Shown piece by piece: positions 2,081 through 58,425 of a DNA stretch of 64,000 nucleotides. The stretch comes from Escherichia coli (GTDB lineage: Bacteria; Pseudomonadota; Gammaproteobacteria; Enterobacterales; Enterobacteriaceae). Position 1 is the stretch's first letter, and each line of letters opens with the position of its first letter. The notes beneath the pieces are model-generated. The model was given only the letters and a program-made list of their open reading frames with translations. It was not told the origin of the DNA and did no database searches. The translations under genes and the position numbers were made by a program. The stretch lies in the NCBI RefSeq assembly GCF_044324875.1, contig NZ_CP172186.1. One strand, written 5' to 3'.

Positions 2081-2462
2081 AGTATGACGGAGACGGGCGG
2101 GCAACTGCCCGTTTCTTTTCCGGTAAAGGATGTCGCCATGCTCCTCTTTTTACTGCGCCGGCTGACGCGGCGCGGCATAAACGCTGCCTGTGGTCAGTGT
2201 CCCGCGTCCGGTGGGCACGGGACGGGCGCTTTTACCGCTCCCGGCTGGCGTCGGTGACAGTGTACGCCAGCCTGTCGCCCTTTTCTGATGAACGCCCTTC
2301 AAGCCGCTTTCGCGGCATAACCTTGCCGTCAAACAGACGACGGCTGCGGTATTCCACGGTCGGCCTGACCCGTTACCGGACGCGGTGAACAGCCCACAGG
2401 CAGCGGGGAACGGGCACCACAGGGGTGCCCTCCCGGTGCCCCCTGTAAGAGAAGGAGCTGTT

Positions 2463-3146
2463 ATGTCCCGTTTTATCCTGGGTGACTGCGTGCGTGTTAT
2501 GGCCACGATTCCTGATAACGCCATTGATTTCATATTAACCGATCCGCCATATCTCGTCGGTTTCCGTGACCGTTCCGGGCGCACCATTGCCGGTGACGTT
2601 AATGATGACTGGCTGCAACCGGCCTGTAATGAGATGTACCGCGTACTCAAAAAAGACGCGCTGATGGTCAGCTTCTACGGCTGGCACCGTATTGACCGCT
2701 TTATGGCGGCCTGGAAACGCGCCGGATTCAGCGTGGTTGGCCACCTGGTCTTCACCAAAAACTACACATCCAAATCTGCGTATGTCGCGTACCGCCACGA
2801 ATGCGCTTACATCCTGGCAAAGGGCAGTCCGGCCCGGCCCCGTAACCCGCTGCCGGATGTGCTGGGCTGGAAATATTCGGGCAACCGCCATCACCCGACG
2901 GAAAAGCCCGTTACCAGCCTGCAACCGCTGATTGAGAGCTTCACACATCCGAACGCGATTGTGCTGGATCCGTTTGCAGGCAGCGGTTCAACCTGCGTGG
3001 CCGCCCTTCAGTCCGGACGCCGGTATATCGGTATCGAGCTGCTTGAACAGTATCACCGTGCCGGACAGCAACGACTGGCCGCCGTGCAACGGGCCATGCA
3101 GCAGGGGGCCGCGAATGATAACTGGTTTATGCCGGAGGCTGCGTAA
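2463..3146 (+). CDS. orphan DNA methyltransferase (amino-methyltransferase, DPPY motif)
   Basis: 227 aa; ...FILTDPPYLVGF... catalytic motif and ...LDPFAGSGST... AdoMet-binding motif; GAAGGAG RBS; no adjacent restriction gene. Confidence 0.85.
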   Translation: MSRFILGDCVRVMATIPDNAIDFILTDPPYLVGFRDRSGRTIAGDVNDDWLQPACNEMYRVLKKDALMVSFYGWHRIDRFMAAWKRAGFSVVGHLVFTKNYTSKSAYVAYRHECAYILAKGSPARPRNPLPDVLGWKYSGNRHHPTEKPVTSLQPLIESFTHPNAIVLDPFAGSGSTCVAALQSGRRYIGIELLEQYHRAGQQRLAAVQRAMQQGAANDNWFMPEAA

Positions 3147-6881: not shown

Positions 6882-9800
6882 ATGAGTGCACGTGGTATCA
6901 ACAAGGTCATCCTCGTCGGGGTGCGCCGTTGAAGCGCGGTGTTTTATGGAGTGTTGCCTGAAAAGCAACATGGCTTAGTGGTATAGCCATTGCATACTGT
7001 GGTTAGCCTTGCTTGGTAACAGGCTCGGAGATCCTGAAAAGGAGAGGTGAACATAGCATCCACAGAAAAGGGTGGTGAATATGGAAATCGTTATAAGTAT
7101 CACCATTCAATGCAAGATGTATATGGATAAACTGGGTTTGTTGAAGTCGAGATCTATGTGGGAAACAGGAAACCAATAACGCAGAACGATTGAAGCGTTA
7201 TTCCCGTACTAGCACAAGAAATCCGTCCGACGTTGATTGTGACCACTCTAACGGGCCAGCTATTGATGAAATAGTTAAACGATCGAAAGACATCCTAAGT
7301 ACATCGCATCTCCACACCGTGAAACTACGGGACTACCTAAACTGGATTTATACCCAGCATGGTAGCGGAGTCTCCATAGTACTCAAGGTCGGCCTGTAAT
7401 GGGTTCCGGCAGTCCGCATTATACGGAAGCAGCAAAGGTATAAATCAACCGGAAGGAAGATGAAAGCCTCACAGTGCTGCGGGGAAGGGAGACAGTTGTT
7501 AGATACATCAATCTCTAAGAGGAGGGTTAGCCAATGCTGCCTGATGAACTTGAGAAAAGATTAGATGGAATTGAGGATGCTTCAAAAAAAGGGTATCCAG
7601 TACGTAATCTATACAAAATTGCGTGTGAGCCCGGACTGTGGCTGCAAGCCTACGTGAATATACGGGCCAATGCAGGTGCACTGACTCAAGGTGTATCAAC
7701 AGATACCATTGATGGCTTTTCTATCGAAAGAGCAGAGAAGCTGGCAAAAACATTGCGGAGTAGAGAATACGTAGCGAAACCTGTACGCAGAGTTCAGATC
7801 CCAAAAAAGGACGGAAAAACCAGACCGCTGGGGATTCCAGGTGGAGACGATAAACTGGCGCAAGAAGTAGCAAGAATTATTCTGGAAAGGGTTTATGAAC
7901 CAGTATTCTCTGAACACTCTCATGGATTCAGACCAAAACGTTCGTGTGAAACTGCGCTCAGATCTATTCGTCCAGTCTGGAACGGAGTTAAATGGATCGT
8001 GGATGTTGATATCAAAGGTTTCTTTGACAATATCCCCCACAAACTATTGCTGAATACACTGGCAGAGAAAATTAAGGATAAGAATTTCCTGAAATTAATC
8101 GAACAGTGGCTGAAGGCAGGATATGTGGACAATTGGAAATACCATCGCTCATATTCTGGCACGCCACAAGGTGGGATAATTTCTCCCTTACTGGCAAATA
8201 TATACCTCGACAAACTGGACCGTTTTGTAGAACAGAATTTAATTCCTGCATATACAAGCGGTACAAAACGAAGAGCGAATCCAGATATGAACAGGCTGGC
8301 CCATAAGATTCATAAACTACGAAAGAAAGTAGACGGTATGGCAACTGATTCTGAATCAGAAAAAGAAGCCATAAAGAAAGAAATTGAACGACTGCTTGAA
8401 GAAAAACGTTCTATACCATCTCAGGTCATGAACGATCCAAACTTCAGGCGTATGTACTATGTTCGATATGCTGATGACTTCGTAATCGGTGTCATCGGCT
8501 CGAAGAAAGATGCTGAACATATATCAAGACAGGTCAGAAACTTTATTACTACTTCACTGGGATTGGAAGTTAATGAAGCAAAGACCAGGATCCGCCATAT
8601 CTCAGAAGGAGTTAATTTTTTAGGCTATGAAATCAGACAGGCAGATGCAAAGAAATTGCTGAAGCAGAAAATGCAAGGGCGGCACGCTCTCCGGAGATCC
8701 ACCACAGGAATTGTGCAGCTCTTCGTTCCTGACAATATAGCCGCTAAATTTTGTCACCAAAAGAAATATGGCTGTTATGAGAATGTGAAGGCTGTACATC
8801 GTTCAAGTCTACAAAATCTCAGTGAAGCTGAAATTGTTCTGACTTTCAACGCGGAAATGCGCGGATTGGCGAACTACTACAGTCTGGCGCTGGACATGAA
8901 ATATAAATTATCAAAATTATATTTCATATGGCAAATAAGCCTTTTTAAGACCCTGGCGAATAAACGACGTAGTTCAGTGAATAAAGTCGCCAAATCGCTA
9001 CGGCAAAATAATGGAGATCTGGCTATTACCGTTCAGGCCAAAAATGGATCCCGAAAGATTGAGGTTTTCAAACTCAAACATGTCAATCGCAACCGAACAA
9101 CGATTGTCGATACGGAACCGAGAACCGCACATATCACAACCCGCACAACAGAGATCATGCGTCGATTAGGGGCAAGGATCTGCGAGTATTGTGCGAAGAC
9201 TGGGCGCTGCGAAGTACATCATGTCAGAAAGCTAAAAGACCTGAAGAAAGGTCGTAAGGCCGGATATAAACCCAGCTTGTGGCAACTAATGATGATCGCA
9301 CGCCGCCGGAAAACGATGATTTTGTGCGCAAGTTGCCACGACAAGTTACATAGCGGAAAACTACCCGATTTGAGACAGGAAAAGGGAAGAATACTCCTGC
9401 AACCACCTGTCTCAAGCGGGGATTCTGCTAAATGAGTTTATCCCCAATAAGCTAGCAATGGAGAGCCGTATGCACTGAAAGGTGCACGTACGGTTCGGAG
9501 GGGGGGTAACGGTGATCTAACTCAAGATAAGCAGGACATATTCGCCATTTATCTTGAAAGACCACACGTACCCTACCCTACCGTCTGGGCAATGATCCGG
9601 AAGTCTGTTACATCCCCAACGGGGGCGCAGTGGCAAACCTGCAGGTCGCCACGTCAGAAAGCTGGCGCGACAAACAGACGGGGGAGATGCGGGAGCAGAC
9701 GGAATGGCACCGCGTGGTGCTGTTCGGCAAGCTCGCGGAAGTGGCTGGTGAATATCTGCGCAAGGGCGCGCAGGTCTACATCGAGGGGCAACTCCGTACC

Positions 9801-10064
9801 CGTAGCTGGGAGGATAACGGTATCACCCGTTACGTCACTGAAATTCTTGTTAAGACCACGGGCACCATGCAGATGCTGGGGAGTGCACCACAGCAGAACG
9901 CTCAGGCGCAACCGAAGCCTCAGCAGAATGGGCAGCCACAGAGTGCTGACGCGACGAAAAAAGGTGGCGCGAAAACGAAAGGCCGTGGACGTAAGGCCGC
10001 GCAGCCGGAGCCTCAGCAGCCGTCTGAACCCGCGTATGACTTCGATGACGACATTCCGTTCTAA
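6882..10064 (+). CDS. ssb: plasmid single-stranded DNA-binding protein, split by a group II intron (exon 1 6882..6920, exon 2 9582..10064)
   Basis: Exon 1 [13 protein letters not shown]; exon 2 [35 protein letters not shown]...DDIPF; exons are in frame and together match the plasmid SSB N-terminus. Confidence 0.8.
7534..9435 (+). CDS. group II intron-encoded reverse transcriptase/maturase with HNH endonuclease domain
   Basis: 633 aa; RT motifs [31 protein letters not shown]; C-terminal CEYC...HHV...CASCHDKLH zinc/HNH motif. Confidence 0.9.
   Translation: MLPDELEKRLDGIEDASKKGYPVRNLYKIACEPGLWLQAYVNIRANAGALTQGVSTDTIDGFSIERAEKLAKTLRSREYVAKPVRRVQIPKKDGKTRPLGIPGGDDKLAQEVARIILERVYEPVFSEHSHGFRPKRSCETALRSIRPVWNGVKWIVDVDIKGFFDNIPHKLLLNTLAEKIKDKNFLKLIEQWLKAGYVDNWKYHRSYSGTPQGGIISPLLANIYLDKLDRFVEQNLIPAYTSGTKRRANPDMNRLAHKIHKLRKKVDGMATDSESEKEAIKKEIERLLEEKRSIPSQVMNDPNFRRMYYVRYADDFVIGVIGSKKDAEHISRQVRNFITTSLGLEVNEAKTRIRHISEGVNFLGYEIRQADAKKLLKQKMQGRHALRRSTTGIVQLFVPDNIAAKFCHQKKYGCYENVKAVHRSSLQNLSEAEIVLTFNAEMRGLANYYSLALDMKYKLSKLYFIWQISLFKTLANKRRSSVNKVAKSLRQNNGDLAITVQAKNGSRKIEVFKLKHVNRNRTTIVDTEPRTAHITTRTTEIMRRLGARICEYCAKTGRCEVHHVRKLKDLKKGRKAGYKPSLWQLMMIARRRKTMILCASCHDKLHSGKLPDLRQEKGRILLQPPVSSGDSAK
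9461..9494 (+). ncRNA. group II intron domain V (catalytic hairpin)
   Basis: 34-nt hairpin GAGCCGTATGCAC-TGAAAG-GTGCACGTACGGTTC matching the domain V pattern. Confidence 0.65.
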
Positions 10065-10416: not shown

Positions 10417-12375
10417 ATGTCAGTTACAGAGTCTAAGACAAAAACGGAGCGTAAATCCAGCCGTAAACCTGCAAAAACGCAGGAAACCGTCCTGTCAGCC
10501 CTGCTGGCGCAGACGGAGGAAGTGAGCGTGCCGCTGGCCTCGCTGATTAAATCACCGCTGAATGTGCGCACGGTGCCGTATTCTGCGGAGTCTGTCAGCG
10601 AACTGGCGGACTCCATTAAAGGTGTCGGCCTGTTACAGAATCTGGTTGTTCATGCCCTGCCAGGTGACCGTTACGGTGTCGCCGCAGGCGGTCGCCGACT
10701 GGCTGCACTCAACATGCTGGCAGAGCGTGGCATCCTTACGGCTGACTGGCCTGTACGCGTGAAGGTTATTCCGCAGGAGCTGGCGACTGCCGCATCAATG
10801 ACTGAAAACGGTCATCGTCGGGATATGCACCCTGCTGAACAGATCGCCGGATTCCGCGCAATGGCGCAGGAAGGCAAAACACCTGAGCAGACTGGCGACC
10901 TGCTGGGCTATTCACCCCGCCACGTCCAGCGAATGCTGAAACTGGCAGACCTTGCACCCGTCATCCTTGATGCGCTGGCAGAAGACCGCATCACCACCGA
11001 ACACTGTCAGGCGCTGGCGCTGGAGAACGACACCGCGCGTCAGGTGCAGGTGTTTGAAGCCGCCTGCCAGTCAGGATGGGGCGGTAAACCGGATGTGCGG
11101 GTTATCCGCAACCTGATTACCGAAAGTGAAGTGGCGGTGGCGGGGAACAGTAAATTCCGCTTCGTGGGGGCTGATGCCTTCTCGCCAGACGAACTGCGCA
11201 CCGATTTGTTCAGCGATGACGGGGACGGTTATGTCGACCGCGTGGCGCTCGATGCCGCCCTGCTGGAAAAACTCCAGGCTGTCGCTGAACACCTTCGGGA
11301 AGCCGAAGGCTGGGAATGGTGCGCCGGGCGCATGGAGCCTGTCGGTGAGTGCCGTGAGGATGCCGGAACATACCGCTGTCTGCCGGAGCCGGAAGCGGTG
11401 CTGACGGAGGCGGAATACGAACGCCTGAACGAACTGATGACGCGTTACGACGCGCTGGAAAACCAGTGTGAGGAATCCGACCTGCTGGAAGCAGAAATGA
11501 AGCTGATGCGCTGCATGGCGAAGGTCAGAGCGTGGACGCCGGAGATACGTGCCGGAAGCGGTGTGGTGGTGTCCTGGCGTTATGGCAACGTATGTGTCCA
11601 GCGTGGTGTGCAGTTGCGCAGTGAAGATGACGCGACTGACGACGCTGACCGCACGGAACAGGTGCAGGAGAAAGCGTCAGTGGAGGAAATCAGCCTGCCG
11701 TTGCTGACGAAAATGTCCTCAGAGCGCACGCTGGCAGTCCAGGCGGCACTCATGCAGCAGCCGGACAAATCCCTGACACTGCTGGCATGGACGCTCTGCC
11801 TGAATGTGTTTGGCAGCGGGGCGTACAGTAAACCAGCACAAATCAGCCTGGAATGTGAACATTATTCGCTGACCAGCGATGCGCCATCGGGGAAGGAAGG
11901 TGCCGCATTCATGGCGCTGATGGCAGAAAAATCCCGTCTTGCAGCCCTGCTGCCGGAGGGATGGTCACGGGACATGACGACATTCCTGTCCCTCAGTCAG
12001 GAGGTGCTGTTATCCCTGCTCAGTTTCTGCACCGCATGCAGCCTTAACGGTGTCCAGACCCGTGAGTGTGGTCACACGTCACGCAGTCCGCTTGACTCGC
12101 TGGAAATCGCTATCGGATTCCACATGCGCGACTGGTGGCAGCCGACAAAAGCAAACTTCTTCGGACACCTGAAAAAGCCACAAATTATCGCAGCCCTGAA
12201 TGAGGCCGGACTGTCCGGTGCCGCACGGGACGCGGAGAAGATGAAGAAAGGTGATGCGGCTGAACATGCAGAGCACCATATGAAAGACAACCGCTGGGTT
12301 CCAGGCTGGATGTGTGCACCACATCCACAGACAGATGCCACTGAACGCACCGATAACCTGACTGATGCCGCCTGA
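10417..12375 (+). CDS. ParB/Srx-like nuclease-domain protein (large leading-region ParB-like protein)
   Basis: 652 aa; N-terminal ParB-like box ...VPLASLIKSPLNVRTVPY...GLLQNLVVHAL...GGRRLAALNML... Confidence 0.75.
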   Translation: MSVTESKTKTERKSSRKPAKTQETVLSALLAQTEEVSVPLASLIKSPLNVRTVPYSAESVSELADSIKGVGLLQNLVVHALPGDRYGVAAGGRRLAALNMLAERGILTADWPVRVKVIPQELATAASMTENGHRRDMHPAEQIAGFRAMAQEGKTPEQTGDLLGYSPRHVQRMLKLADLAPVILDALAEDRITTEHCQALALENDTARQVQVFEAACQSGWGGKPDVRVIRNLITESEVAVAGNSKFRFVGADAFSPDELRTDLFSDDGDGYVDRVALDAALLEKLQAVAEHLREAEGWEWCAGRMEPVGECREDAGTYRCLPEPEAVLTEAEYERLNELMTRYDALENQCEESDLLEAEMKLMRCMAKVRAWTPEIRAGSGVVVSWRYGNVCVQRGVQLRSEDDATDDADRTEQVQEKASVEEISLPLLTKMSSERTLAVQAALMQQPDKSLTLLAWTLCLNVFGSGAYSKPAQISLECEHYSLTSDAPSGKEGAAFMALMAEKSRLAALLPEGWSRDMTTFLSLSQEVLLSLLSFCTACSLNGVQTRECGHTSRSPLDSLEIAIGFHMRDWWQPTKANFFGHLKKPQIIAALNEAGLSGAARDAEKMKKGDAAEHAEHHMKDNRWVPGWMCAPHPQTDATERTDNLTDAA

Positions 12376-12864: not shown

Positions 12865-13071
12865 GCGCATGCAAAATGGCATCTGAATCGATCGCAGTTT
12901 GGCATTCGAATCGATCATGATTTGGCATCCATCTCCGATCACAGTTTGGCATCACAATCGATCACGATTTGGCATGCTTCCGATCATTGATTGGCATCCT
13001 GCCAGTCACTCCGGGAATTAACTCTTTTCACCACAGTCTCCATTGCCGTGTTTAAACCAGTGGAGACGTCA

Positions 13072-14637
13072 ATGTCCAGAAAGAGAAAATCCAGGAGCAC
13101 TATGGAAACCTGTTTTAAGATCCTTCAGCTCAAGTTCGACAAGAAGCTGACTAACCGTTGTATCGGACTGACGTTACACATCAGCGCCTCAACCGTTTTT
13201 GAGGTTCTTGCCCGCTTCAAAGCCTCTTCTCTGTCATGGCCATTACCTGCTGATATATCCCATGACACGCTGGAGAAACTCATTTTTCCGCCCAAAGACA
13301 CCTTTGCATCAGAGCTTGTAATGCCTGACATGTTGTACTTCGATACGGAAATGAGAAAACCAGGTGTGACGCGGCAACTGTTGTGGATGGAATACAAGGC
13401 ACAGGCGGGTAACAAAGCGATGGGATACTCGCACTTCTGCCGTTGCTACCGGGAGTGGAAAAAAACGCGACGTCTCTCCATGCGCCAGGAGCATCGTGCC
13501 GGCGAAAAGCTTTTTATCGACTTCTGTGGTCCTACGGTTCCTGTTATTAATCCGGACACCGGTGAGATACGCCGCGTGGCAATCTTCGTGGCCGTAATGG
13601 GGGCGTCCAACTATACCTACGTTGAAGCGTGCGAAGGTCAGGACATGATGTCATGGTTAAATGCCCACAGCCGTTGCCTGACCTTCCTGGGCGGCGTACC
13701 GAAGCTGCTCATCCCCGATAACCTCAGAAGCGCAGTGAAAAAGGCCGATCGATATGAGCCTGTCATCAACGACAGTTATCAGGCACTGGCTGAGCACTAT
13801 GGCACGGTTATCATCCCGGCCCGACCACGCAAACCTAAAGATAAACCAAAAGCAGAAAACGGCGTCCTCATCGTTGAACGATGGCTTCTTGCCCGCATCC
13901 GTAATGAAACCTTCCACACGCTCAGGGCGCTGAATGCGCGCCTTAGGGAGTTACTGACAGACATGAATAACCGGCCAATGAAGGGGTACGGCAATCAAAC
14001 CCGTGCAGAACGCTTCCGCATACTGGATGCGCCAGCACTCTCTCCGCTGCCTCTGGCACCTTATGAATACACGGAATACAAAGCTGTGAAGGTTGGCCCT
14101 GACTACCACGTTGAATATGCCCGTCACTGGTACTCCGTTCCACACGAACTGGTCGGTCAGCGTCTGTCACTGAAGGCGGGGCAGTCGGTGGTACAGCTCT
14201 GGCACAAGGGGCAGTGTGTGGCGCAACATCCGCGCAGCACACATGAATATAAACACACAACCAATCCGCTTCACATGCCAGAGCGCCACCGGCAGCACGG
14301 GACATGGACACCGGAACGCCTGATCGAGCAGGGAAAACGTACGGGCCCGTCCACAGGCCGGGTGGTTGAATCCATGCTGAAGGCAAAACCCCATCCGGAA
14401 CTGGCTTATCGTGCAGTTCTGGGGCTGCTGGCACTTCAGAAAAAATACGGCCCGGAACGGCTGGAAAAGGCCTGTTACGTTGCCCTGCACTATAACGCCC
14501 CTGACAGACGCTTTATCGACAATCTGCTGCGTCACCATCGGGAGAACCTGGAGCTTCCATTATCCCGCCAGGGCGAACAACATCCGGCATATGCTTCAGA
14601 GCATGAAAACCTGCGTGGTCCGGGCTACTACCACTGA
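13072..14637 (+). CDS. istA: IS21-family transposase IstA
   Basis: ~521 aa, HTH N-terminus and DDE integrase core; start chosen at MSRKRKS after GGAGACG RBS. Confidence 0.85.
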   Translation: MSRKRKSRSTMETCFKILQLKFDKKLTNRCIGLTLHISASTVFEVLARFKASSLSWPLPADISHDTLEKLIFPPKDTFASELVMPDMLYFDTEMRKPGVTRQLLWMEYKAQAGNKAMGYSHFCRCYREWKKTRRLSMRQEHRAGEKLFIDFCGPTVPVINPDTGEIRRVAIFVAVMGASNYTYVEACEGQDMMSWLNAHSRCLTFLGGVPKLLIPDNLRSAVKKADRYEPVINDSYQALAEHYGTVIIPARPRKPKDKPKAENGVLIVERWLLARIRNETFHTLRALNARLRELLTDMNNRPMKGYGNQTRAERFRILDAPALSPLPLAPYEYTEYKAVKVGPDYHVEYARHWYSVPHELVGQRLSLKAGQSVVQLWHKGQCVAQHPRSTHEYKHTTNPLHMPERHRQHGTWTPERLIEQGKRTGPSTGRVVESMLKAKPHPELAYRAVLGLLALQKKYGPERLEKACYVALHYNAPDRRFIDNLLRHHRENLELPLSRQGEQHPAYASEHENLRGPGYYH

Positions 14638-14653
14638 CAGAAGGAACAACAGT

Positions 14654-15409
14654 ATGAGTGATAACCTGTTAAACAAACTGACCCAACTGAAACTCCCGGC
14701 GATGGCCGGGAGCCTGATACGGCAGCGGGAAACGCCTCAGACCTACGACGAACTGTCGTTCGAGGAAAGGCTGACGCTGCTGGTTGATGACGAGCTTCTG
14801 AGCAGGGAAAACAGCCGTGTGGCACGGTTGAGAAAAAATGCCGGCCTGAAATACCAGGCAACACCGGAAGGGCTGCGCTATCCGGCCTCAAGAGGTCTGC
14901 GGGCTGAACAGATGAGAGAACTGCTGAACGGCCACTACATAACCCACAGGAAAAACCTGCTGATAACCGGTCCGACAGGATGTGGCAAGAGCTGGATAGC
15001 CAATGCGCTGGGCGAACAGGCATGTCGACAGAAACACAGCGTCCGGTACTGTAGAACCGGGCGATTACTGGAACAACTGGCTCAGGGACGTGTTGATGGC
15101 AGCTGGCTGAAATATCTGAAACAGTTGCAAAAAATACAGGTTCTAATCCTGGACGATCTGGGGCTGGAACAGTTAAGTAACGCCCAGTGTAATGACCTTC
15201 TGGAGCTCATAGAGGATCGTTACGGACAAAGCAGCACGATAGTGGTAAGCCAGTTCCCGGTAGATAAATGGCATGGTCTGATGGAGAACCCAACAACAGC
15301 AGATGCCATCCTGGACAGACTGGTACATAACTCACACCGAGTGGTCCTTCAGGGAGAGTCACTGAGGAAAAATCCCCCGGTAGTGGAAAGCAGCGAAAAA
15401 ACGCGTTAA
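14654..15409 (+). CDS. istB: IS21-family helper ATPase IstB
   Basis: 251 aa; Walker A LLITGPTGCGKSW, Walker B ILILDDLG. Confidence 0.9.
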   Translation: MSDNLLNKLTQLKLPAMAGSLIRQRETPQTYDELSFEERLTLLVDDELLSRENSRVARLRKNAGLKYQATPEGLRYPASRGLRAEQMRELLNGHYITHRKNLLITGPTGCGKSWIANALGEQACRQKHSVRYCRTGRLLEQLAQGRVDGSWLKYLKQLQKIQVLILDDLGLEQLSNAQCNDLLELIEDRYGQSSTIVVSQFPVDKWHGLMENPTTADAILDRLVHNSHRVVLQGESLRKNPPVVESSEKTR

Positions 15410-15509: not shown

Positions 15510-16225
15510 GCGCACGTTCACGGGCACTGATCCCCCTCAGCGCAGAACAACAGGCCGCTATGCAGGCTGTGGCTGTCACCGAACAACGTCGTCGTCAGGG
15601 ACGCACACTTTCAGCATGGCCTTATGCCACCGCTTTCTTTCGCTGCCTGAATGGCAGTCGCCGGATTTCGCTGACCGATCTCCGCTTTTTTGCCCCTGCG
15701 CTGACGAAGGAGGAATTTCATGGCAACCGTCTCCTGTGGCTGGCTGCAGTGGACAAACTGATTGAAAGTTTTGGTGAAGTCTGTGTTCTTCCCCTGCCAT
15801 CCGATGCGGGGCATCGTTTGTTCCCGTCCGTTCCTTTTCGTGAAGGTGAGCGGCGTCGTCAGAAAACCACGCTGACAGAGCAGAAATACAGCCGCCAGCG
15901 GGAACGTGAGGCAGAACGACGGGAACGGGAATACCAGACATGTTTTGCTCAGGCGCAGATTGACCTTGCGTTTCATACTCCCGCCACGGTCGGAAGCTGG
16001 TTGTCCCGCTGGTCTGGTGTTGTTGAGGAGCATGATCTGGAAACGATTTTCTGGGGGTGGTGCGGGCGTTTTCCATCACTGTCATCATTTGACCGGTTTT
16101 TCTGGCAGGAGGAACCACTCTGGCGGTTGATTTTTGAAGCCGGTGAGGCCGGTCGTGGTGCACCGGTACAGGTACGTGCACTTGAGCAGTGGATGATCCC
16201 GAACAAGCTGGAGAACGTAATATGA
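15510..16225 (+). pseudogene. psiA: plasmid SOS inhibition protein PsiA, separated from its first three codons (12861..12869) by the IS21-family insertion
   Basis: Joining ATGAGCGCA to the sequence after the IS gives MSARSRALIPLSAEQQAAMQAVAVTEQRRRQGRTLSAWPY..., matching PsiA. Confidence 0.8.
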
Positions 16226-16917: not shown

Positions 16918-17275
16918 GGAATAAGGACGTCGCCGCCGGCTCCGCTTTTACCCGGCCATGCGGGGCATGGCCTTGTGGGTTTTCAGCTCTGTGGCCTCAG
17001 CGTCGTGTGCGGGCTGTGCCGTGCCTCCATCGTAGCCGGGCTTCTGCGGGCGGGATGCAAGGTAAGATGAACCGCTGCGGTCACCCGGTCCCTCCTTCCC
17101 GTCTGCCGTGATTTTCCGGTCGTTCACCCGCTCAGATTTCGCGGTCTCACCCTCCAACTCCCGTCAGCCGTGCGCGTCGGGCTGCGGCTTTCCTTGCGCC
17201 CTTGCATCCCTGCAGGCCCGGCAAAGATGGAGGCACGGCACCGCCCGGTGTCGCAGAACATGTGACTATGGAGGA
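16918..17275 (+). promoter_or_regulatory. single-strand-promoter-like structured element, family A copy 2 (upstream of ardA)
   Basis: Near-identical to 4688..5040. Confidence 0.5.
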
Positions 17276-17282
17276 TTCGGGA

Positions 17283-17783
17283 ATGTCTGTTGTTGCACCT
17301 GCTGTATACGTTGGAACCTGGCACAAATATAACTGCGGAAGCATCGCCGGCCGCTGGTTTGACCTGACCACGTTTGATGATGAACGCGATTTTTTCGCCG
17401 CCTGCCGTGCCCTTCACCAGGATGAAACCGATCCGGAACTGATGTTTCAGGATTATGAGGGTTTCCCGGGGAATATGGCCTCTGAATGTCATATCAACTG
17501 GGCCTGGGTTGAAGGCTTCCGCCGGGCACGGGATGAAGGCTGCGAAGAGGCTTATCGTCTCTGGGTGGATGATACCGGTGAGACGGATTTTGACAGCTTC
17601 CGCGATGCCTGGTGGGGCGAGGCTGACAGTGAGGAGGCTTTTGCGGTTGAGTTCGTCAGTGATACCGGCCTGCTGGCTGACGTGCCGGAGACGGTGGCGC
17701 TCTATTTTGACTATGAGGCGTATGCGCGGGATTTATTCCTGGACTCCTTCACCTTTATTGACGGTCATGTGTTCCGTCGGTGA
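17283..17783 (+). CDS. ardA: antirestriction protein ArdA
   Basis: 166 aa MSVVAPAVYVGTWHKYNCGSIAGRWFDLTTFDDE...; acidic DNA-mimic, matches recalled ArdA. Confidence 0.9.
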   Translation: MSVVAPAVYVGTWHKYNCGSIAGRWFDLTTFDDERDFFAACRALHQDETDPELMFQDYEGFPGNMASECHINWAWVEGFRRARDEGCEEAYRLWVDDTGETDFDSFRDAWWGEADSEEAFAVEFVSDTGLLADVPETVALYFDYEAYARDLFLDSFTFIDGHVFRR

Positions 17784-17934: not shown

Positions 17935-18505
17935 TGTTGTTCTGATGCCCGGAGGCGGGGACACCCTTCGGCTCCCGGCTGCCTGGCGGCATCCGGTCGT
18001 CGGCCCGACTCCGACAGGCAGCTGCTGGCGCACCCGCCAGTCTCCGCCGAACCCGCTGGCGCGGTTTCGGGCTGCCGCTACGGTCCGATGTCTGAAAAAC
18101 CAGGCCTGCAGCGACCGTTCCGGTCGCGCCGCCCCTGTCGCGCCGGAAACGGCGCTCCCTGCACACCTGACGGTGTGTAAGGCCACTGCGCCTGATGGCG
18201 CAGTCAACCCTTCCGCCGCCACCCCTGCGGCCTGTTTCCCGCTGTGGACTTTCCGGGGGCTGAAGCGGCCACAACACGGGGCAGCCGTCCAGGGGAGAGA
18301 TGTACCAGCCACAAAACTTTTTGCCGCAGGCGTCAAAAACTTTTGCGTCTGCCCCCGGACAACTGCCCCGTGCCGTGGCAGTCGCTGCCCCATCGGAAAG
18401 GTCCACTGCGGGGAGAAACCCCGAAGAAGTGGACGGCAGAAGGGGCTTTCGCCCCTCCGGGGGAGCAACCGGTCGGCCCGGCGACCTGATTCAGCAGAAG
18501 GAGAC
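17935..18505 (+). promoter_or_regulatory. single-strand-promoter-like structured element, family B copy 2
   Basis: Near-identical to 6290..6875. Confidence 0.5.
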
Positions 18506-18511
18506 GTTTTC

Positions 18512-18946
18512 ATGACAGTCAGCAGCACGATTTCCGTTTTTTGCCGAGACGGGGTGTTCCGTACCGTTTACTGCCACCTGCACGGTGAGCCGACCTGGAA
18601 CGGTCGCATCCTGCATACCCACTATGCCACCGGTCAGCTGGCCGAAGCCCTGGTTGAACACGGAGATATCCGTTGCCTCGGTCCCCGTTGCGACAAACCC
18701 GCCGGGCATACGCTTCAGAACCCGGTGGACGGTGTGACGGCTTATTACGGACGTGACAGTGGTTTCCGGATGGACAGTGAGGCGCGTGAGTACCGTTCTT
18801 TCAGGGAGGCTATTGCCACTGAAAGCACTGAAGAGGTGCGCTTCCATTATGTGTTCATCGACGGCTACTGGAAGGTGATGTACCGCACGCCGGAAGGCTG
18901 GAAGATGAAAGCGCTCGCGCTGGCACTGCGTCGCTGTCCGGAATGA
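18512..18946 (+). CDS. hypothetical protein directly downstream of a family-B element
   Basis: 144 aa from MTVSSTISVFCRDG; GAAGGAGACG RBS; the long 17945..18946 ORF upstream of this start is the repeat element read in frame. Confidence 0.6.
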   Translation: MTVSSTISVFCRDGVFRTVYCHLHGEPTWNGRILHTHYATGQLAEALVEHGDIRCLGPRCDKPAGHTLQNPVDGVTAYYGRDSGFRMDSEAREYRSFREAIATESTEEVRFHYVFIDGYWKVMYRTPEGWKMKALALALRRCPE

Positions 18947-19037: not shown

Positions 19038-19304
19038 GTGAGACCATCAATTATCTTCGCAACCGCCGAGTATGTAAAGCGTCTGCGTGAAGAGTGCCTG
19101 CGGGAGAATAAACCCCTGCACCGCCATACCCGCTTCAGACGTCAGGAGCTGGCACAGGATGAGATTAACCCGGACGTCCTGGCGATGAGCGGTCATATCG
19201 CCAGACGCTGCAGTGAGCAGAAGCGGGTGCGTATCCCCGCCATGAAAGTCAGCGAATGGGGCCACCTGCTCCGCGCGCTTGAAATTGAACGGGTCTGTCA
19301 CTGA
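19038..19304 (+). CDS. hypothetical small protein (GTG start)
   Basis: 88 aa; AAGGAGA RBS 8 nt upstream. Confidence 0.4.
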   Translation: MRPSIIFATAEYVKRLREECLRENKPLHRHTRFRRQELAQDEINPDVLAMSGHIARRCSEQKRVRIPAMKVSEWGHLLRALEIERVCH

Positions 19305-19368
19305 TTAACCCTTGCCGTCTGCCTGTGCAGGCGGCAGGATACGTTCAGACATCTCACCAGGAGGAACC

Positions 19369-20247
19369 GTGAGTAAGAAGAAAAACACCACAACGCCCAC
19401 GCCGCATGATGCCGCGTTCCGGTCGTTCCTGGCGAATCCCGACGTTGCCAGGGATTTTCTGGAGTTGCATCTTCCTGCGGAGTACCGGCAGTTGTGCGAC
19501 CTGTCCACCCTGAAGCTGGAACCCGCCACCTTTGTTGAGCCGGACCTGCATCAGTACGCCAGCGATATCCTCTGGAGTGTGAAAACCACCGGGGGTGAAG
19601 ACGGCTATGTTTATACGCTCATCGAGCACCAGAGCACCGAAAATCTGTACATGCCTTTTCGCATGTTACGTTACAGTGTGGCGGCGATGCAGAGACATCT
19701 GGAGCAGCACAAAACGTTGCCACTGGTCATTCCGGTGCTGTTCTATCACGGTGAGCGCAGCCCGTACCCGTACAGCATGAACTGGCTGGACTGTTTTGAG
19801 AATCCGGCACTTGCGGCTAAAATATACACAAAGCCGTTTCCGCTGGTTGATATCACTGTCGTTGATGACAATGAAATCATGAACCATCGCCGGATGGCCG
19901 CACTGACGCTGCTGATGAAGCATATCCGCCATCGTGACATGATGGAGCTGCTGGACAAACTCCCGCAGGTCATGGTGGAAATTTCAGACGAGCAGGTGCG
20001 TGTTCTGATTCATTACATCGTTAACGCAGGGGACACTGTATCACCGGAATTTATGCGGGCGCTGGCCGAGCGCCTGCCGCAGCATGAGGATAAACTGATG
20101 ACAATCGCAGAACGTCTTGAGCAGAAAGGTGCGCTTGAAAAAGCCCTGGCCATTGCGCGTCAGCTTCAGAAAATGGGGATGACACCTGAGCAGATTAAGC
20201 AGGCCACCGGACTTTCCGAAGCTGAACTGAAAAAAGTCATTCACTGA
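19369..20247 (+). CDS. rpn: Rpn-family (YhgA-like, PDDEXK) recombination-promoting nuclease
   Basis: 292 aa from GTG after AGGAGG RBS; ...TPTPHDAAFRSFLANPDVARDFLELHLP...DILWSVKT...YTLIEHQSTENLYMPFRMLRYSVAAM... typical Rpn N-terminal nuclease domain. Confidence 0.8.
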   Translation: MSKKKNTTTPTPHDAAFRSFLANPDVARDFLELHLPAEYRQLCDLSTLKLEPATFVEPDLHQYASDILWSVKTTGGEDGYVYTLIEHQSTENLYMPFRMLRYSVAAMQRHLEQHKTLPLVIPVLFYHGERSPYPYSMNWLDCFENPALAAKIYTKPFPLVDITVVDDNEIMNHRRMAALTLLMKHIRHRDMMELLDKLPQVMVEISDEQVRVLIHYIVNAGDTVSPEFMRALAERLPQHEDKLMTIAERLEQKGALEKALAIARQLQKMGMTPEQIKQATGLSEAELKKVIH

Positions 20248-20259
20248 TGAGAGCATCAC

Positions 20260-20285
20260 AGCCCGGCAAAATGCCGGGCTTTTTG
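20260..20285 (+). terminator. intrinsic terminator after rpn
   Basis: AGCCCGGCA-AAA-TGCCGGGCT followed by TTTT. Confidence 0.5.
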
Positions 20286-20308
20286 CCAGCAGGAGCAGAG
20301 CAAACAGC

Positions 20309-20527
20309 ATGACGATTGCAGAACGTCTTATACAGAAAGGTTTCGACGAGGGTTTTAAAGAAGGTTTTAAACAAGGTTTTAAACAAGGTTTTAAACAAGG
20401 AGCTCTTGAAGTGGCGCGGGAAATAGCCTGCCGGCTTCGGGATATAGGCTGGTCGCCGGAACGGATTCAGGAGGTCACGGGACTTTCCGGTGAAGAACTG
20501 AAAAAGCTGTTTCCTGATGAGCAGTAG
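20309..20527 (+). CDS. free-standing Rpn C-terminal-tail (RpnS-like) small protein with GFKQ repeats
   Basis: 72 aa MTIAERLIQKGFDEGFKEGFKQGFKQGFKQGALEVAREIACRLRDIGWSPERIQEVTGLSGEELKKLF; parallels the last ~50 aa of the upstream Rpn (MTIAERLEQKGALEKALAIARQLQKMGMTPEQIKQATGLSEAELKKVIH); AGGAG RBS. Confidence 0.65.
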   Translation: MTIAERLIQKGFDEGFKEGFKQGFKQGFKQGALEVAREIACRLRDIGWSPERIQEVTGLSGEELKKLFPDEQ

Positions 20528-20557: not shown

Positions 20558-20809
20558 TCACACATCCTCTGCCGTTTCCCCCAGTTCATTTTCCAGTCGC
20601 CTGATGATATCTGCCTTACGCATCCCCTGCATGTGAGGCAGCAGGTCACGGACTGAAAGTGCCTGGGTGGTCCTCCAGACGGTGACGTCCACCTGTTCCG
20701 CATTTTCCCAGGCGTGCCATGTTCTCTGCGTCACGCCAAATTCTCTGGCCGCTTTTTCGCGTGACCAGAGCATGCTTTTTCGCCAGATTCGCAGTTCCCA
20801 TCCGGTCAT
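20558..20809 (-). CDS. putative helix-turn-helix regulator
   Basis: 83 aa; ...WSREKAAREFGVTQRTWHAWE... HTH-like segment; AAGGTG RBS. Confidence 0.5.
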   Translation of the reverse strand: MTGWELRIWRKSMLWSREKAAREFGVTQRTWHAWENAEQVDVTVWRTTQALSVRDLLPHMQGMRKADIIRRLENELGETAEDV

Positions 20810-20989: not shown

Positions 20990-21380
20990 TGTTGTGCCGT
21001 CGTTTTTCTTCAGTCGCGCCGGATGCGGCGCTCCCTGCACACCTTACGGTGTGTAAGGCCACTGCGCCTGATGGCGCAGCTGCCTCTGCCTGTCTGCCGC
21101 CGCACTGCGGCCTGTTCTCCGCAGACGGACTTTCCGGGGGTACATACACGACCACATCCCGTTTCAGTCGTCCAGGGGAGAGATGTACCAGCCACAAAAC
21201 TTTTTGCCGCAGGCGTCAAAAACTTTTGCGTCTGCCCCCGGACAACTGCCCCGTGACGTGGTGAGCGTCCCCCGTCGGAAAGGTCCACTGCGGGGAAATC
21301 CCCGAAGACCCGGACGGCAGAAGGAGCTTCGCTCCTCCGGGAAATGACCTGGCTGACCCGGCAGTCGTGACGATGAGGAG
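20990..21380 (+). promoter_or_regulatory. single-strand-promoter-like structured element, family B copy 3 (3' two-thirds only)
   Basis: Matches the 3' part of 6290..6875 and 17935..18505. Confidence 0.45.
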
Positions 21381-21385
21381 ACAAT

Positions 21386-22237
21386 GTGATGAATCAGACT
21401 TTACCCACTGCTGACCTGAATACTGCCGGCACGACAGATGTTATTCCGTCTGTGGCTATCGACCGCATCATCGCGCAGCGTAACGAAGGTATTGCACTGT
21501 TCATGCAGGCGATGGAATGCCTGGCGACAGCGCGCAGGATTCTGCTCGATGCTTCCGGTGACATTTTTCTCTACGGGTTTGAAGACTGCGTGACTGACTC
21601 CGTTCGATGCATGGATAAACCGGAAGAAGCGAAAAGGAATATCACCCGTCTTGCCGACCGGAAAATCTGGGACCGCCTGATGACAGATACGGGCATGTAC
21701 ACCTTCATGAGTTCATGCCAGCGTGATGAGTGGAACAGCCAGCTGATGAGCGACACCTGTCCTGAAATCACCCTGGACAATGTACTGGCAACATTCCGCC
21801 ATCTTAATGCCAGCAAGATGCAGACATTTGAACAGGGACTGATTGATGTCTACCGGAAATTGTCATGGGATTACAGAACCAATAATCCCTGCCGTCTGGG
21901 CAAGAAAATCATTATTGAAAACCTGCTGTACCGCTGGAGTAACGGGCGTGTGACGCTGGACTGCAGCAGACGGGAGGCACTGGATGACCTGGTACGTCCG
22001 TTTTATCTGCTGGAGGGGCGCAACGTTCCTGACTTCAGGAACAGCATCGGGGCGCAGTATGGTGAATTTCTCAGGAACGGCGACAATGTCGGTAAGTTGT
22101 TAGAAGGGGAATATTTTACGGTGCGTGGCTACCAGAAAGGGACCGTACACATTGTCTTTAAGCGTTCTGACCTTGTTGAAAAACTGAATGATATTATTGC
22201 ACGGCATTATCCTGGTGCATTGCCGCCACGAGTCTGA
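21386..22237 (+). CDS. hypothetical protein directly downstream of a family-B element
   Basis: 283 aa; GAGGAG RBS; hairpin plus T-run at 22248..22280 follows. Confidence 0.6.
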   Translation: MMNQTLPTADLNTAGTTDVIPSVAIDRIIAQRNEGIALFMQAMECLATARRILLDASGDIFLYGFEDCVTDSVRCMDKPEEAKRNITRLADRKIWDRLMTDTGMYTFMSSCQRDEWNSQLMSDTCPEITLDNVLATFRHLNASKMQTFEQGLIDVYRKLSWDYRTNNPCRLGKKIIIENLLYRWSNGRVTLDCSRREALDDLVRPFYLLEGRNVPDFRNSIGAQYGEFLRNGDNVGKLLEGEYFTVRGYQKGTVHIVFKRSDLVEKLNDIIARHYPGALPPRV

Positions 22238-33193: not shown

Positions 33194-34765
33194 TTACTGA
33201 GAGCTCAGATCAACTTTCCAGGGCAACAGATCGCGTACCCGGTTTGCCGGCCAGTCCTGGATATGTTCAATGACGTAACGCAGCCACTTTTCTGGCTCCA
33301 CATTGTTCAGACGGCATGTGCCGATCAGCGAGTACAACACCGCCGCATGTTCACCACCGCTGTCGGAACCCGCGAACATCCAGTTTTTCCGGCCTACGGC
33401 CACTCCCCGTAAGGCGTTCTCTGCGATGTTGTTGTCGATTTCCACCCAGCCATTACTGCAGTACACGTTCAGTGCATCCCACTGTTTCAGCAGGTATGCG
33501 AACGCTTTTGCCGTATCTGAGTGACGCGACAGTGTTTTCATCTGTTGCTGTATCCAGTCATACAGTGACTGCATCAGTGGCGCGGCTCTGGCTTTTCTTG
33601 CCGCCAGACGCTGTTCTGCTGAACAGCCCCGGACCTCTGCCTCGATGGCATACAGTTCACCGATACGCTGCAGGGCTTCCGTGGTGATGTAGGTGGGCGC
33701 TCTTGCATGCACATCGTGGATTTTTCTCCGGGCATGAGCCATACACGCGGCTTCCGTTATTCTGCCGGATTCGTATAACGCCCGGTAACCACCGTAAGCA
33801 TCGGCCTGAAGCACACCGCTGTAACCGGCCAGGTGATTTTGTGGATGGATACCTTTCCGGTCCGGACTGTACGCGAACCAGACCGCCGGGGGCATCTGTG
33901 AACCGGCGTTACGGTCATCACGGACGTAGACCCACAGCCGGGCTGTCCGGGTTTTACCGCTGCCCGGCTCCTGGACCGGGACGGGGATATCATCAGCATG
34001 GACTTTACCGGGCATCAGCACATACTGGCGCAGGACGTCATACAGCGGCTCCAGCAGTTCAGCAACAGCACCTGTCCAGCGCCCCAGTGTGGCACGGCTC
34101 AGCTCCACTCCCTGACGACGGTATATTTCTGACTGGCGGTATAACGGCAGATGGTCTGCATATTTCCCGGTGACAACATGGGCCAGAAGCCCCGCTCCGG
34201 CATAACTGCGTGCAATGGGTTTTGAAGGTACTGGTGCCTGCACGATATGGTCGCACCGGCAACAGGCCTGTTTCGGACGTTGTGTTTCGATAACCTTAAA
34301 GGCGCTGCTGATAAGCTCCAGTTGCTCTGACACATCACATCCCAGAGAACTGAGTTCACCACCACAGGCAGGACAGCATTCCTCTTCCGGCCGGATAACC
34401 CGGGTTTCACGGGGAAGTGAGGCCGGTAACGGTTTACGGGCTGAAGACTGGCGCAGGGCGGATGGCAGTACCGGGTCATATTGCTCACCCAGCGTTTCCG
34501 CCATTTCTTCCTGAAGTGCGCTGATTCGCTCCTGTGCTTCCTGTATCTGCCGTTCGGTTTTTGCACGAAGTTTTTCTGAGCTTTTACCGAACTGCATACG
34601 TTGCAGTTTCGCAACCAGCGCCTTCAGCCGGTTGATTTCGGAAGCATAAGCCGCCACCCGCTGTGAGAGCAGGCGGTTGTATTCAGCCATCTGGCGGATG
34701 GTGTCCTGTTGCGTCTGCAACAGTGCCCGCAGGCGGGCGTTCTCATGAGCAAGTGAGGTGTCCAT
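33194..34765 (-). CDS. IS66-family transposase (TnpC)
   Basis: 523 aa with leucine-zipper N-terminus and CPACGG zinc motif, typical IS66 TnpC. Confidence 0.85.
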
Positions 34766-41785: not shown

Positions 41786-42541
41786 TTAACGCGTTTTTTC
41801 GCTGCTTTCCACTACCGGGGGATTTTTCCTCAGTGACTCTCCCTGAAGGACCACTCGGTGTGAGTTATGTACCAGTCTGTCCAGGATGGCATCTGCTGTT
41901 GTTGGGTTCTCCATCAGACCATGCCATTTATCTACCGGGAACTGGCTTACCACTATCGTGCTGCTTTGTCCGTAACGATCCTCTATGAGCTCCAGAAGGT
42001 CATTACACTGGGCGTTACTTAACTGTTCCAGCCCCAGATCGTCCAGGATTAGAACCTGTATTTTTTGCAACTGTTTCAGATATTTCAGCCAGCTGCCATC
42101 AACACGTCCCTGAGCCAGTTGTTCCAGTAATCGCCCGGTTCTACAGTACCGGACGCTGTGTTTCTGTCGACATGCCTGTTCGCCCAGCGCATTGGCTATC
42201 CAGCTCTTGCCACATCCTGTCGGACCGGTTATCAGCAGGTTTTTCCTGTGGGTTATGTAGTGGCCGTTCAGCAGTTCTCTCATCTGTTCAGCCCGCAGAC
42301 CTCTTGAGGCCGGATAGCGCAGCCCTTCCGGTGTTGCCTGGTATTTCAGGCCGGCATTTTTTCTCAACCGTGCCACACGGCTGTTTTCCCTGCTCAGAAG
42401 CTCGTCATCAACCAGCAGCGTCAGCCTTTCCTCGAACGACAGTTCGTCGTAGGTCTGAGGCGTTTCCCGCTGCCGTATCAGGCTCCCGGCCATCGCCGGG
42501 AGTTTCAGTTGGGTCAGTTTGTTTAACAGGTTATCACTCAT
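41786..42541 (-). CDS. istB: IS21-family IstB (copy 2)
   Basis: Protein identical to copy 1 IstB. Confidence 0.9.
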   Translation of the reverse strand: MSDNLLNKLTQLKLPAMAGSLIRQRETPQTYDELSFEERLTLLVDDELLSRENSRVARLRKNAGLKYQATPEGLRYPASRGLRAEQMRELLNGHYITHRKNLLITGPTGCGKSWIANALGEQACRQKHSVRYCRTGRLLEQLAQGRVDGSWLKYLKQLQKIQVLILDDLGLEQLSNAQCNDLLELIEDRYGQSSTIVVSQFPVDKWHGLMENPTTADAILDRLVHNSHRVVLQGESLRKNPPVVESSEKTR

Positions 42542-42557
42542 ACTGTTGTTCCTTCTG

Positions 42558-44123: not shown

Positions 44124-44408
44124 TGACGTCTCCACTGGTTTAAACACGGCAATGGAGACTGTGGTGAAAAGAGTTAATTCCCGGAGTGACTGGCAGGATG
44201 CCAATCAATGATCGGAAGCATGCCAAATCGTGATCGATTGTGATGCCAAACTGTGATCGGAGATGGATGCCAAATCATGATCGATTCGAATGCCAAACTG
44301 CGATCGATTCAGATGCCATTTTGCAGGTAAAAATGGCAATTTTTTTCATGCTGTATTTTTGCCATTTATTTTCTTTGAAATGGTTTTTTTCTTCATATCA
44401 GCAAATAA

Positions 44409-58362: not shown

Positions 58363-58425
58363 GTTCACAGATAAAACACTCTCCAGGAAACCCGGGGCGG
58401 TTCAAAACGTCAGCCACATCACAAA

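Follow-up and report, generated by a model that had tools for sequence, protein, structure and literature searches.

The window analysed here is a stretch of 64,000 nucleotides of Escherichia coli DNA (contig NZ_CP172186.1, NCBI RefSeq assembly GCF_044324875.1) with the backbone of an IncI-type (MOBP/MPF_I) plasmid. The element in question is a pair of adjacent genes: an rpn nuclease gene and, directly behind it, a small gene whose 72-residue product resembles the C-terminal tail of Rpn proteins. Rpn genes are toxin-antitoxin systems built as genes within genes, in which the toxic nuclease RpnL is inhibited by RpnS, a small protein made from an internal start (Zhong et al. 2023, PNAS, PMC10400941, our main source; oligonucleotides are those of the table in the preprint supplement, PMC10327210). 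RpnS is a three-helix bundle that dimerizes through its long helix 1 (PMC10400941). All coordinates given below are positions of the window.

The first gene of the pair, rpnL (19369..20247, plus strand), encodes a full-length Rpn protein (YhgA-like PD-(D/E)XK nuclease) of 292 amino acids, according to the list of open reading frames as well as Pfam and NCBIfam. Its GTG start codon is preceded, 6 nt upstream, by a GGAGG motif. Residues 11-207 are covered by PF04754 (YhgA-like, Transposase_31; E = 1.9e-78), and the whole protein scores 168.7 bits against the NCBIfam Rpn family TIGR01784 (cutoff 52.1). RpnL keeps D14, D66, E86 and Q88, the positions altered in the published active-site mutant of the plasmid protein RpnP2 (RpnP2LS+M, gBlock AO730, Fig. 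S8 legend). The tail of RpnL begins at M244 (MTIAERLEQKG...), an in-frame RpnS start; in an alignment with the crystallised E. coli RpnA-S it falls on Met1 (PDB 7TH0, E = 1.5e-4). The intragenic rpnS (20098..20247, plus strand) comprises the 49-residue tail in the rpnL frame and has a GAGGA motif 8 nt upstream (20086-20090). A promoter-like site, TTGAGA-16-TAAAAT (19796..19823, plus strand; 10/12 matches in a consensus scan), lies within rpn and might act as an internal promoter of rpnS and also, if transcription reads through, of the small gene; internal promoters inside rpn genes have been reported (PMC10400941, Fig. 1A).

Between the two genes lies a hairpin of the intrinsic-terminator type, consisting of AGCCCGGCA-AAA-UGCCGGGCU followed by UUUU (20260..20285, plus strand). 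The G+C-rich stem-loop (20260-20280) has 9 base pairs and stands 3' of the rpn stop codon; the 68-nt intergenic RNA folds with -26.3 kcal/mol (z = -3.9). The hairpin was checked by RNA folding; a simple terminator scan misses it, as the stem takes up one U of the run. It is kept in every related locus. The spacer between rpn and the small gene is 61 nt long and holds, besides the hairpin, the ribosome-binding site AGGAG of the small gene (20291..20295, plus strand), 13 nt before the ATG at 20309. Near this site the spacer sequence CAGCAGGAGCAGAGCAAACAGC is conserved among loci.

The small gene itself (20309..20527, plus strand) encodes 72 residues and is a member of the free-standing rpnSs class of RpnS-family genes, with a tail of the type called C below. 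Residues 1-67 align with residues 244-290 of the Rpn protein with 43% identity (BLASTP, E = 6e-12), interrupted by one gap of 20 residues that corresponds to the repeat block. TIGR01784 is matched as well, at its C-terminal positions 223-273 (E = 2.3e-5), and PF27070 (HTH_Rpn_C) is precomputed on close variants of the small protein and on Rpn tails. The membership in the rpnSs class rests on the pairwise alignment, TIGR01784 and PF27070, because a Pfam-A scan of the 72-residue protein gives no significant match. The protein resembles the products of stand-alone DUF4351 (PF14261) and HTH_Rpn_C genes, likewise small free proteins that correspond to the Rpn C-terminal domain, but DUF4351 is not among its matches in the Pfam-A scan. 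Codons 11-30 form five repeats of 12 bp or 4 residues, GFDE GFKE GFKQ GFKQ GFKQ (20339..20398, plus strand); Tandem Repeats Finder reports a period of 12 with 4.2 copies and 97% matches at 20351-20400. As published for rpnSs genes, the repeats start within 8-20 residues of the methionine (here at residue 11) and vary in copy number among plasmids, the gene is separate and lies directly 3' of a complete rpn, and the homology to the Rpn C-terminal domain covers the small protein as a whole, beginning at the methionine of the internal start. Judged by these alignments, the small gene encodes a separate homologue of the C-terminal RpnS domain, with its first residue at the position of the internal start, and the similarity is not due to chance. 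It is not one half of a split rpn pseudogene, a reading we rejected because the upstream Rpn retains a complete tail of its own. An earlier note on this DNA, made from the sequence without database searches, had described the 292-residue Rpn with its MTIAERLEQKG tail, the terminator and separate ribosome-binding site before the 72-residue gene, the GFDE-to-GFKQ expansion and the kinship of the small protein with the Rpn tail; profile searches with both proteins and the folding of the spacer bear it out on all of these.

Annotations of the small gene differ. Public gene calls of 85 or 89 amino acids (P0005-P0012 and others; window 20246-20308) begin with MRTTKPGKMPGFF, from an upstream ATG across the terminator hairpin, and are probably mis-called starts. 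Entries P0076, P0033 and P0105 are read-through or frameshift fusions, and some recent RefSeq records call the gene 'RpnC/YadD family protein'. In a 99.8%-identical group of plasmids from enterotoxigenic E. coli (L001, 9010-9228) the small gene departs from window 20309-20527 in nothing but the repeat block, with GFKQ instead of GFKE in unit 2, which suggests ongoing homogenisation among the dodecamers.

An AlphaFold2 model of the 72-residue protein, built on an alignment of 35 sequences, is all-helical (residues 3-26, 32-45, 50-57 and 61-67), with moderate confidence (predicted local distance difference test, pLDDT, of 66.8). Helix 1 has 24 residues and holds the repeats; three short helices follow. 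Among PDB structures, Foldseek ranks RpnA-S (7TH0) first, with E = 1.4, which is not significant, and a probability of 0.75. The model is consistent with the RpnS fold but is no proof of it. Several matches from profile and sequence searches were rejected. The best Pfam-A match, Yae1_N (0.0048), is caused by the GF-rich repeat; NCBIfam matches to FliH on residues 8-35 coincide with the repeat block; and IcmE/DotG and designed repeat proteins, the top sequence matches in the PDB, consist of many weak stretches of a repetitive or compositional kind. The PDB sequence search with the 72 residues did not reach RpnA-S. PADLOC has no Rpn model; its profile PDLC01084 ('putative invertase', a model of 90 positions for a candidate system) matches residues 3-40 of the small protein (E = 6.4e-7; 20309-20524), so that this candidate defence system may conceal a further small protein of the RpnS kind.

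The arrangement of the two genes has a precedent. Separate rpnSs genes downstream of rpn are described on chromosomes and plasmids, namely ypaA (rpnESs) after rpnE and rpnCSs after rpnC, and the RpnESs/YpaA protein has been detected with an SPA tag (PMC10400941). Strain-variable repeats of 4 residues start 8-20 residues after the methionine of the RpnS domain, RpnSs proteins carry them too, and an rpnSs gene can disappear through deletion or by becoming fused to the N-terminal domain of rpn (PMC10400941). The repeats matter for pairing: one repeat added to RpnC-S or to RpnC-L abolishes inhibition unless both partners have it, and RpnA-S is without effect on RpnB-L (PMC10400941). Both rpnE-ypaA and rpnC-rpnCSs are built like the pair in the window, with a complete rpn with an internal RpnS start, then a small gene with another copy of the tail, and strain-variable 12-bp or 4-residue repeats early in helix 1. 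They differ in the origin of that copy. RpnCSs and RpnESs each cluster with the RpnS of their own upstream gene (PMC10400941, where this is reported for the two without being made part of the definition of the class), which implies local duplication, whereas the downstream tail of the window is of another type, with 43% identity and a different repeat unit. The suggestion in the earlier note that the arrangement was undescribed therefore does not hold: free-standing rpnSs genes with 4-residue repeats, on chromosomes and plasmids, are in print (PMC10400941), and the locus creates no new category. What is new here is, at most, that the tail is heterologous, unlike the published local duplicates that cluster with their own gene.

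The locus as such is also known. The deletion primer AO739 and the cloning primer AO737 for rpnP2 of strain ECOR13 match the window exactly, at 19329 and 19369, and the RpnP2 gBlock AO714 is near-identical to it up to about codon 186 and divergent beyond. By these matches the window locus is the same plasmid locus as that studied as RpnP2, which was used in 2023 to show phage defence. The reverse primers AO619 and AO738 end in CTTATACAGAAAGGTTTCGACG, i.e., window 20327-20348 or codons 7-13 of the small gene, and the downstream part of the RpnP2 gBlock is only 101 bp long and ends at codon 13. Because primers and gBlock end inside the small gene, the ECOR13 plasmid can be taken to have the same downstream gene. 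Every published RpnP2LS construct, and with it the experiments on RpnP2 toxicity and phage defence, used a truncated small gene. Nevertheless RpnP2LS grows like the vector control and protects against T-even phages, and RpnP2L is toxic only upon loss of the intragenic RpnP2S, its antitoxin (PMC10400941). As the truncated construct is non-toxic and protective, neither the restraint of RpnP2 nor defence depends on the small gene. We note that nuclease activity and toxicity without RpnS were shown for RpnA, RpnB and RpnP2 (PMC10400941), that is, for other alleles than the RpnL of the window. A literature search found no later work on plasmid RpnSs.

The gene pair is common. The 1.3-kb pair occurs in 2037 plasmids of PLSDB, mostly conjugative, from Escherichia, Salmonella, Shigella and Klebsiella, with match lengths that vary by multiples of 12. 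The small gene is found on plasmids of the IncI complex and on some IncF and IncHI2 plasmids. Among complete E. coli genomes, DNA of the small gene is present in 1340 of 5426 (25%), at 1429 plasmid and 15 chromosomal places. A gene carried by about a quarter of the complete genomes of this species and by more than 2000 sequenced plasmids is mostly labelled 'hypothetical', often with a mis-called start.

Tails were typed in 36 related loci. Tails attached to the Rpn nuclease fall into type A (QKG-[RQEG][RMEG]n-ALEKALAIA..., 0-6 repeats), type B (QEG-[IQQG]n-ALQKAREIA..., departing from A from about codon 186) and the mosaic type D (IQKG/IQQG repeats and RMEEKQDIA). The window rpn is an allele of the RpnP2 locus with a type-A tail and zero repeats. 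It shares with RpnP2LS of ECOR13 an identical 5' flank and start, a near-identical N-terminal domain and the small gene downstream, but RpnP2 has a type-B tail with IQQG repeats. The last downstream gene, in contrast, is always of type C (QKG-FDEG-[FK(E/Q/K)G]n-ALEVAREIACRL...LFPDEQ), with 0-6 repeats and five in the window allele, and type C sits behind Rpn tails A, B and D. It is in this respect that the small gene departs from RpnCSs and RpnESs: it does not cluster with the RpnS of its own upstream gene. The 36 loci contain 16 distinct combinations of Rpn tail, its repeat number and the repeat number of the small gene, one of them with equal numbers, and the two genes show no coupling of their repeat numbers (Spearman rho = -0.24, p = 0.37). 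A first impression from 14 loci, that the repeat numbers never match, was dropped with the larger set. Close relatives differ by one repeat in one gene with the other gene constant (L002 and L003; L023 and L024), and two loci with the same Rpn tail (L011 and L012) have small genes with 4 and 1 repeats, respectively.

Two alleles exhibit rearranged tails. In L017 (GCA_022812185.1, JAIPXM010000116.1) an RpnL with a type-B tail is followed by a free type-A tail gene of 53 residues (1381-1542) and then by a type-C gene of 64 residues (1601-1795). The terminator hairpin is duplicated between these stacked genes: the units share the hairpin GCCCGGCA(A/G)AATGCCGGGC and the spacer CAGCAGG(A/G)GCAGA, and each starts with ATGAC(n)ATTGCAGAACGTCTT. 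In L013 (310-1233; pN583, LC567079.1, annotated 'ygdB') a type-C tail continues the reading frame of the nuclease domain, with MTIAERL at the junction, and a separate small gene is absent, the same fusion to the N-terminal domain that is published as a route of rpnSs loss (PMC10400941). Such type-C fusions amount to about 1/60 in a spread sample of plasmids. A search with the repeat-less C tail against 1.84 billion representative proteins gave 41 matches, none of them a full-length Rpn of about 300 residues with a C-type tail; the longer matches are fragments with A-like tails. Since the library search and the typing of loci yield a C-type fusion only as a rare plasmid allele, tail C exists almost exclusively as a free gene.

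The free gene is well maintained. Its ratio of nonsynonymous to synonymous polymorphism (pN/pS) is 0.23, against 0.46 for the Rpn N-terminal domain in the same loci, a comparison drawn from few (15 distinct alleles, 52 non-repeat codons), non-independent and recombining alleles, in which recombination raises the count of comparisons that are not independent. The segregating sites are mostly synonymous. Start codon, spacer and full frame are kept in 34 of the 35 loci with a complete rpn, the exception being the in-frame fusion, and a public collection holds more than 100 intact variants of the small protein, 60-76 residues long and differing by multiples of 4 residues. Both the selection figures and the number of intact variants argue against a decaying remnant.

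On the homology, population structure, recombinant alleles and selection observed at the small gene, we favour, with moderate confidence, its interpretation as a maintained, non-cognate tail cassette of the RpnS family (type C) that arose by, and takes part in, a modular exchange of tails. The locus is a plasmid toxin-antitoxin and phage-defence gene of the rpnP type, consisting of the nuclease RpnL, its intragenic antitoxin RpnS, predicted to be made from M244, and a gene of the rpnSs class, the type-C cassette being kept intact under purifying selection behind rpn alleles with tails A, B or D. The tail modules have common ends, with the same terminator hairpin and spacer at the end and the same ATGACnATTGCAGAACGTCTT at the beginning, so that unequal or homologous recombination is possible. 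By such events a former tail may stay behind as a separate downstream gene, several tails may come to lie one after another, or a free tail may be rejoined to the nuclease domain; slippage of the 12-bp repeats would lengthen or shorten helix 1 in one copy without affecting the others. As to expression, binding specificity and role of the 72-residue protein, we infer that the RpnL of the plasmid is restrained by its own RpnS and that the small protein is most probably made at a low level, either by read-through of the hairpin or from the candidate promoter at 19796-19823. It would then be an orphan RpnS that pairs only with type-C tails and could serve as a standby tail for exchange, as immunity against a type-C Rpn, or both. 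Because RpnS needs matching tails in the published tests and RpnP2 is fully controlled by its intragenic RpnS, the small protein is probably not a working antitoxin of the zero-repeat RpnL. Much more tentatively, and with considerable doubt, we consider that the type-C gene may long have been kept as a non-cognate orphan RpnS for a job of its own, be it trans-immunity against type-C Rpn proteins of recipients or rival plasmids, or a standby cassette for swapping the tail that determines specificity.

Several observations weigh against the interpretation as a non-cognate, maintained cassette. The small gene lies behind a terminator and its Shine-Dalgarno spacing of 13 nt is long. The non-cognate status is suggested by analogy with one RpnC experiment, on a single extra repeat, and with the cross-tests of RpnA and RpnB, all of them other proteins than the two considered here. 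The first 11 residues and the TGLS..ELKK end are near-identical in the resident tail and in tail C, which may permit some cross-binding of the two. The structural model is of moderate confidence only, with its nearest PDB match short of significance, and the pN/pS value stems from a small, recombining set of alleles. Finally, a standby cassette that is fused in only about 1 of 60 plasmids may fail to explain the strong conservation.

The near-identical ends would fit a second cognate antitoxin, in which the 72-residue protein binds the tail of the resident RpnL and adds dose, for example early after transfer or where the internal start is poorly used. The MTIAERL.QKG beginning of helix 1 and the C-terminal TGLS..ELKK are common to the resident tail, the small gene is conserved directly 3' of rpn in thousands of plasmids, and a second copy of this kind is known to be synthesised in the case of RpnESs/YpaA beside rpnE (PMC10400941). 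We nevertheless regard this function as rather unlikely, as RpnP2LS constructs without an intact small gene are non-toxic and the two tails share only 43% identity outside the repeats, with different repeat units and 5 versus 0 repeats. Moreover, the same C tail stands behind A, B and D with uncoupled repeat numbers, and in the published tests an extra repeat abolished RpnC inhibition and RpnA-S failed against RpnB-L (PMC10400941). The idea of a dedicated antitoxin for the plasmid's own Rpn, one of two raised in the earlier note, is weakened accordingly: RpnP2LS truncated at codon 13 is non-toxic and defends, and tail type and repeat number are untied from the resident Rpn. The other idea, an anti-defence decoy, holds that the free tail is expressed early in the recipient and neutralises Rpn proteins of the recipient or of resident plasmids. 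Its attraction is the position of the gene in the leading region, with the transferred strand as template, between ArdA/psiA and the origin of transfer (oriT) and downstream of a hairpin of the ssi/Frpo kind; anti-defence genes are enriched in leading regions (PMC11541004) and genes behind single-stranded DNA promoters are strongly induced early (PMC12672017). However, RpnS action is tail-specific in the published tests (PMC10400941), the 41 library matches include no full-length type-C Rpn as a target and the fusion exists only as a rare plasmid allele. The C tail has no detectable PDB match to RpnA-S, unlike the resident tail, the terminator separates the small gene from upstream transcription, and the main text of the two leading-region papers (PMC11541004, PMC12672017) makes no mention of Rpn. 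We therefore judge a decoy to be improbable.

A non-functional by-product, i.e., a leftover of a past tail replacement that persists as a short hitch-hiker with the module, would be in line with the stacked and fused alleles, which show tails left behind or picked up by recombination, with the weak spacing of the ribosome-binding site and the terminator upstream, and with a published defence phenotype that is independent of the small gene. The low pN/pS (0.23, in the limited allele set described above) with mostly synonymous segregating sites, the retention of start, spacer and frame in 34 of 35 loci, more than 100 protein variants and a single exception that is an in-frame fusion and no decay product make it very improbable. 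We give hardly any weight to the remaining alternative, a small helix-turn-helix DNA-binding regulator of rpn or of neighbouring leading-region genes that does not act on the RpnL protein. It is prompted by the Pfam domain name HTH_Rpn_C, by fold matches below significance that are mostly helix-turn-helix DNA-binding domains, and by the relatedness of RpnS to helix-turn-helix motifs mentioned from HHpred (PMC10400941); but all fold matches have E > 1 on a model of moderate confidence, the sections of PMC10400941 used here report no DNA binding by RpnS, and no operator-like repeat turned up, with no search aimed at one.

A non-cognate tail cassette has analogues elsewhere. In silent-cassette variation systems, recombination can bring a spare version of a variable domain, located far from the promoter, into the gene that is expressed; by comparison, fusion alleles at the rpn tail are rare, and we know of no dedicated recombinase or programmed switching at the locus. 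Orphan antitoxins, free antitoxins without a cognate toxin in cis, are a further analogy. A third, cited in PMC10400941, are the HsdS subunits of EcoR124I and EcoR124II, where the number of 4-residue TAEL repeats in a helical spacer changes specificity as the repeats of Rpn tails may do; the TAEL repeat sets the spacing of the DNA recognition sequence, whereas the repeat of Rpn tails is proposed to set the protein-protein pairing between tails. The decoupling of tail type and repeat number, together with the stacked and fused alleles, provides a concrete view, open to experiment, of the diversification of Rpn tails. Should the orphan tail give cross-immunity or act at plasmid entry, Rpn defence would be linked to plasmid establishment; if it confers trans-immunity or is a standby cassette, the rpn locus would amount to a small variation system of the leading region that works with cassettes, which goes further than the description by Zhong et al.

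The placement of the pair in a plasmid leading region, as proposed in the earlier note, is borne out by its surroundings. Upstream and on the plus strand are ssb (9630-10061), a ParB-like gene (10417-12372), psiA (15560-16222) and an ArdA-like anti-restriction gene (17202-17780); downstream, also on the plus strand, nikA starts at 22891 and nikB at 23235. As nikA and nikB lie 2.4 kb downstream of the small gene, oriT is expected about 2.4 kb away and the module is part of the leading region. The plus strand, on which the module is located between the establishment genes and oriT, is the strand transcribed from the transferred strand.

Two ssi/Frpo-like elements of about 250 bp, 93-96% identical to each other, bracket a module of 2.9 kb that comprises orf144, orf88, rpn, the small gene and a convergent helix-turn-helix gene, and that looks like one insertable unit of the leading region. 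Element a (18137..18378, no strand assigned) contains the direct repeats D1/D2 and lies upstream of orf144; element b (21013..21261, no strand assigned), likewise with direct repeats, closes the module upstream of a DUF4942 gene known from annotation (21386-22237). As single-stranded DNA, the strand complementary to plus folds at 18090-18420 into a long, stable hairpin (-121.8 kcal/mol, z = -12.9). Class-1 single-strand promoters of the ssi/Frpo kind are described for IncI1 and F plasmids, with strong early induction of downstream genes (PMC12672017), and by analogy elements a and b may be such promoters. Element a is 1 kb upstream of rpn, and two genes, rpn and the terminator stand between it and the small gene.

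Within the module, orf144 (18515..18946, plus strand; 143-144 residues, WP_001297820.1 in a near-identical plasmid) is a conserved hypothetical gene without match in NCBIfam or PADLOC. A second conserved hypothetical gene, orf88 (19038..19304, plus strand; 88 residues, from the open reading frame list and annotation), overlaps with its 3' part the 300 bp used as native promoter region in the RpnP2 study (gBlock AO591). The convergent helix-turn-helix gene (20558..20809, minus strand; 83 residues, 'ygeA' in pN583) is a constant neighbour, annotated in almost all related plasmids, and runs against the usual orientation of the leading region; in family searches its only match is a weak one to PADLOC mad1 (E = 0.0028). 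Further upstream of the module, the window contains a DNA methyltransferase gene (2385-3143, plus strand) and, between it and ssb, a group II intron reverse transcriptase/maturase (7534-9432; TIGR04416, E = 1.3e-92). An element of the IS21 family (istA of 548 residues, istB of 332 residues) is present in two inverted copies, at 12991-15409 and 41786-44204, the first of which lies immediately upstream of psiA and may separate it from its usual upstream partner. An IS66 transposase (33194-34762) and a fragment of a Tn3 transposase (58244-60268) are found farther downstream.

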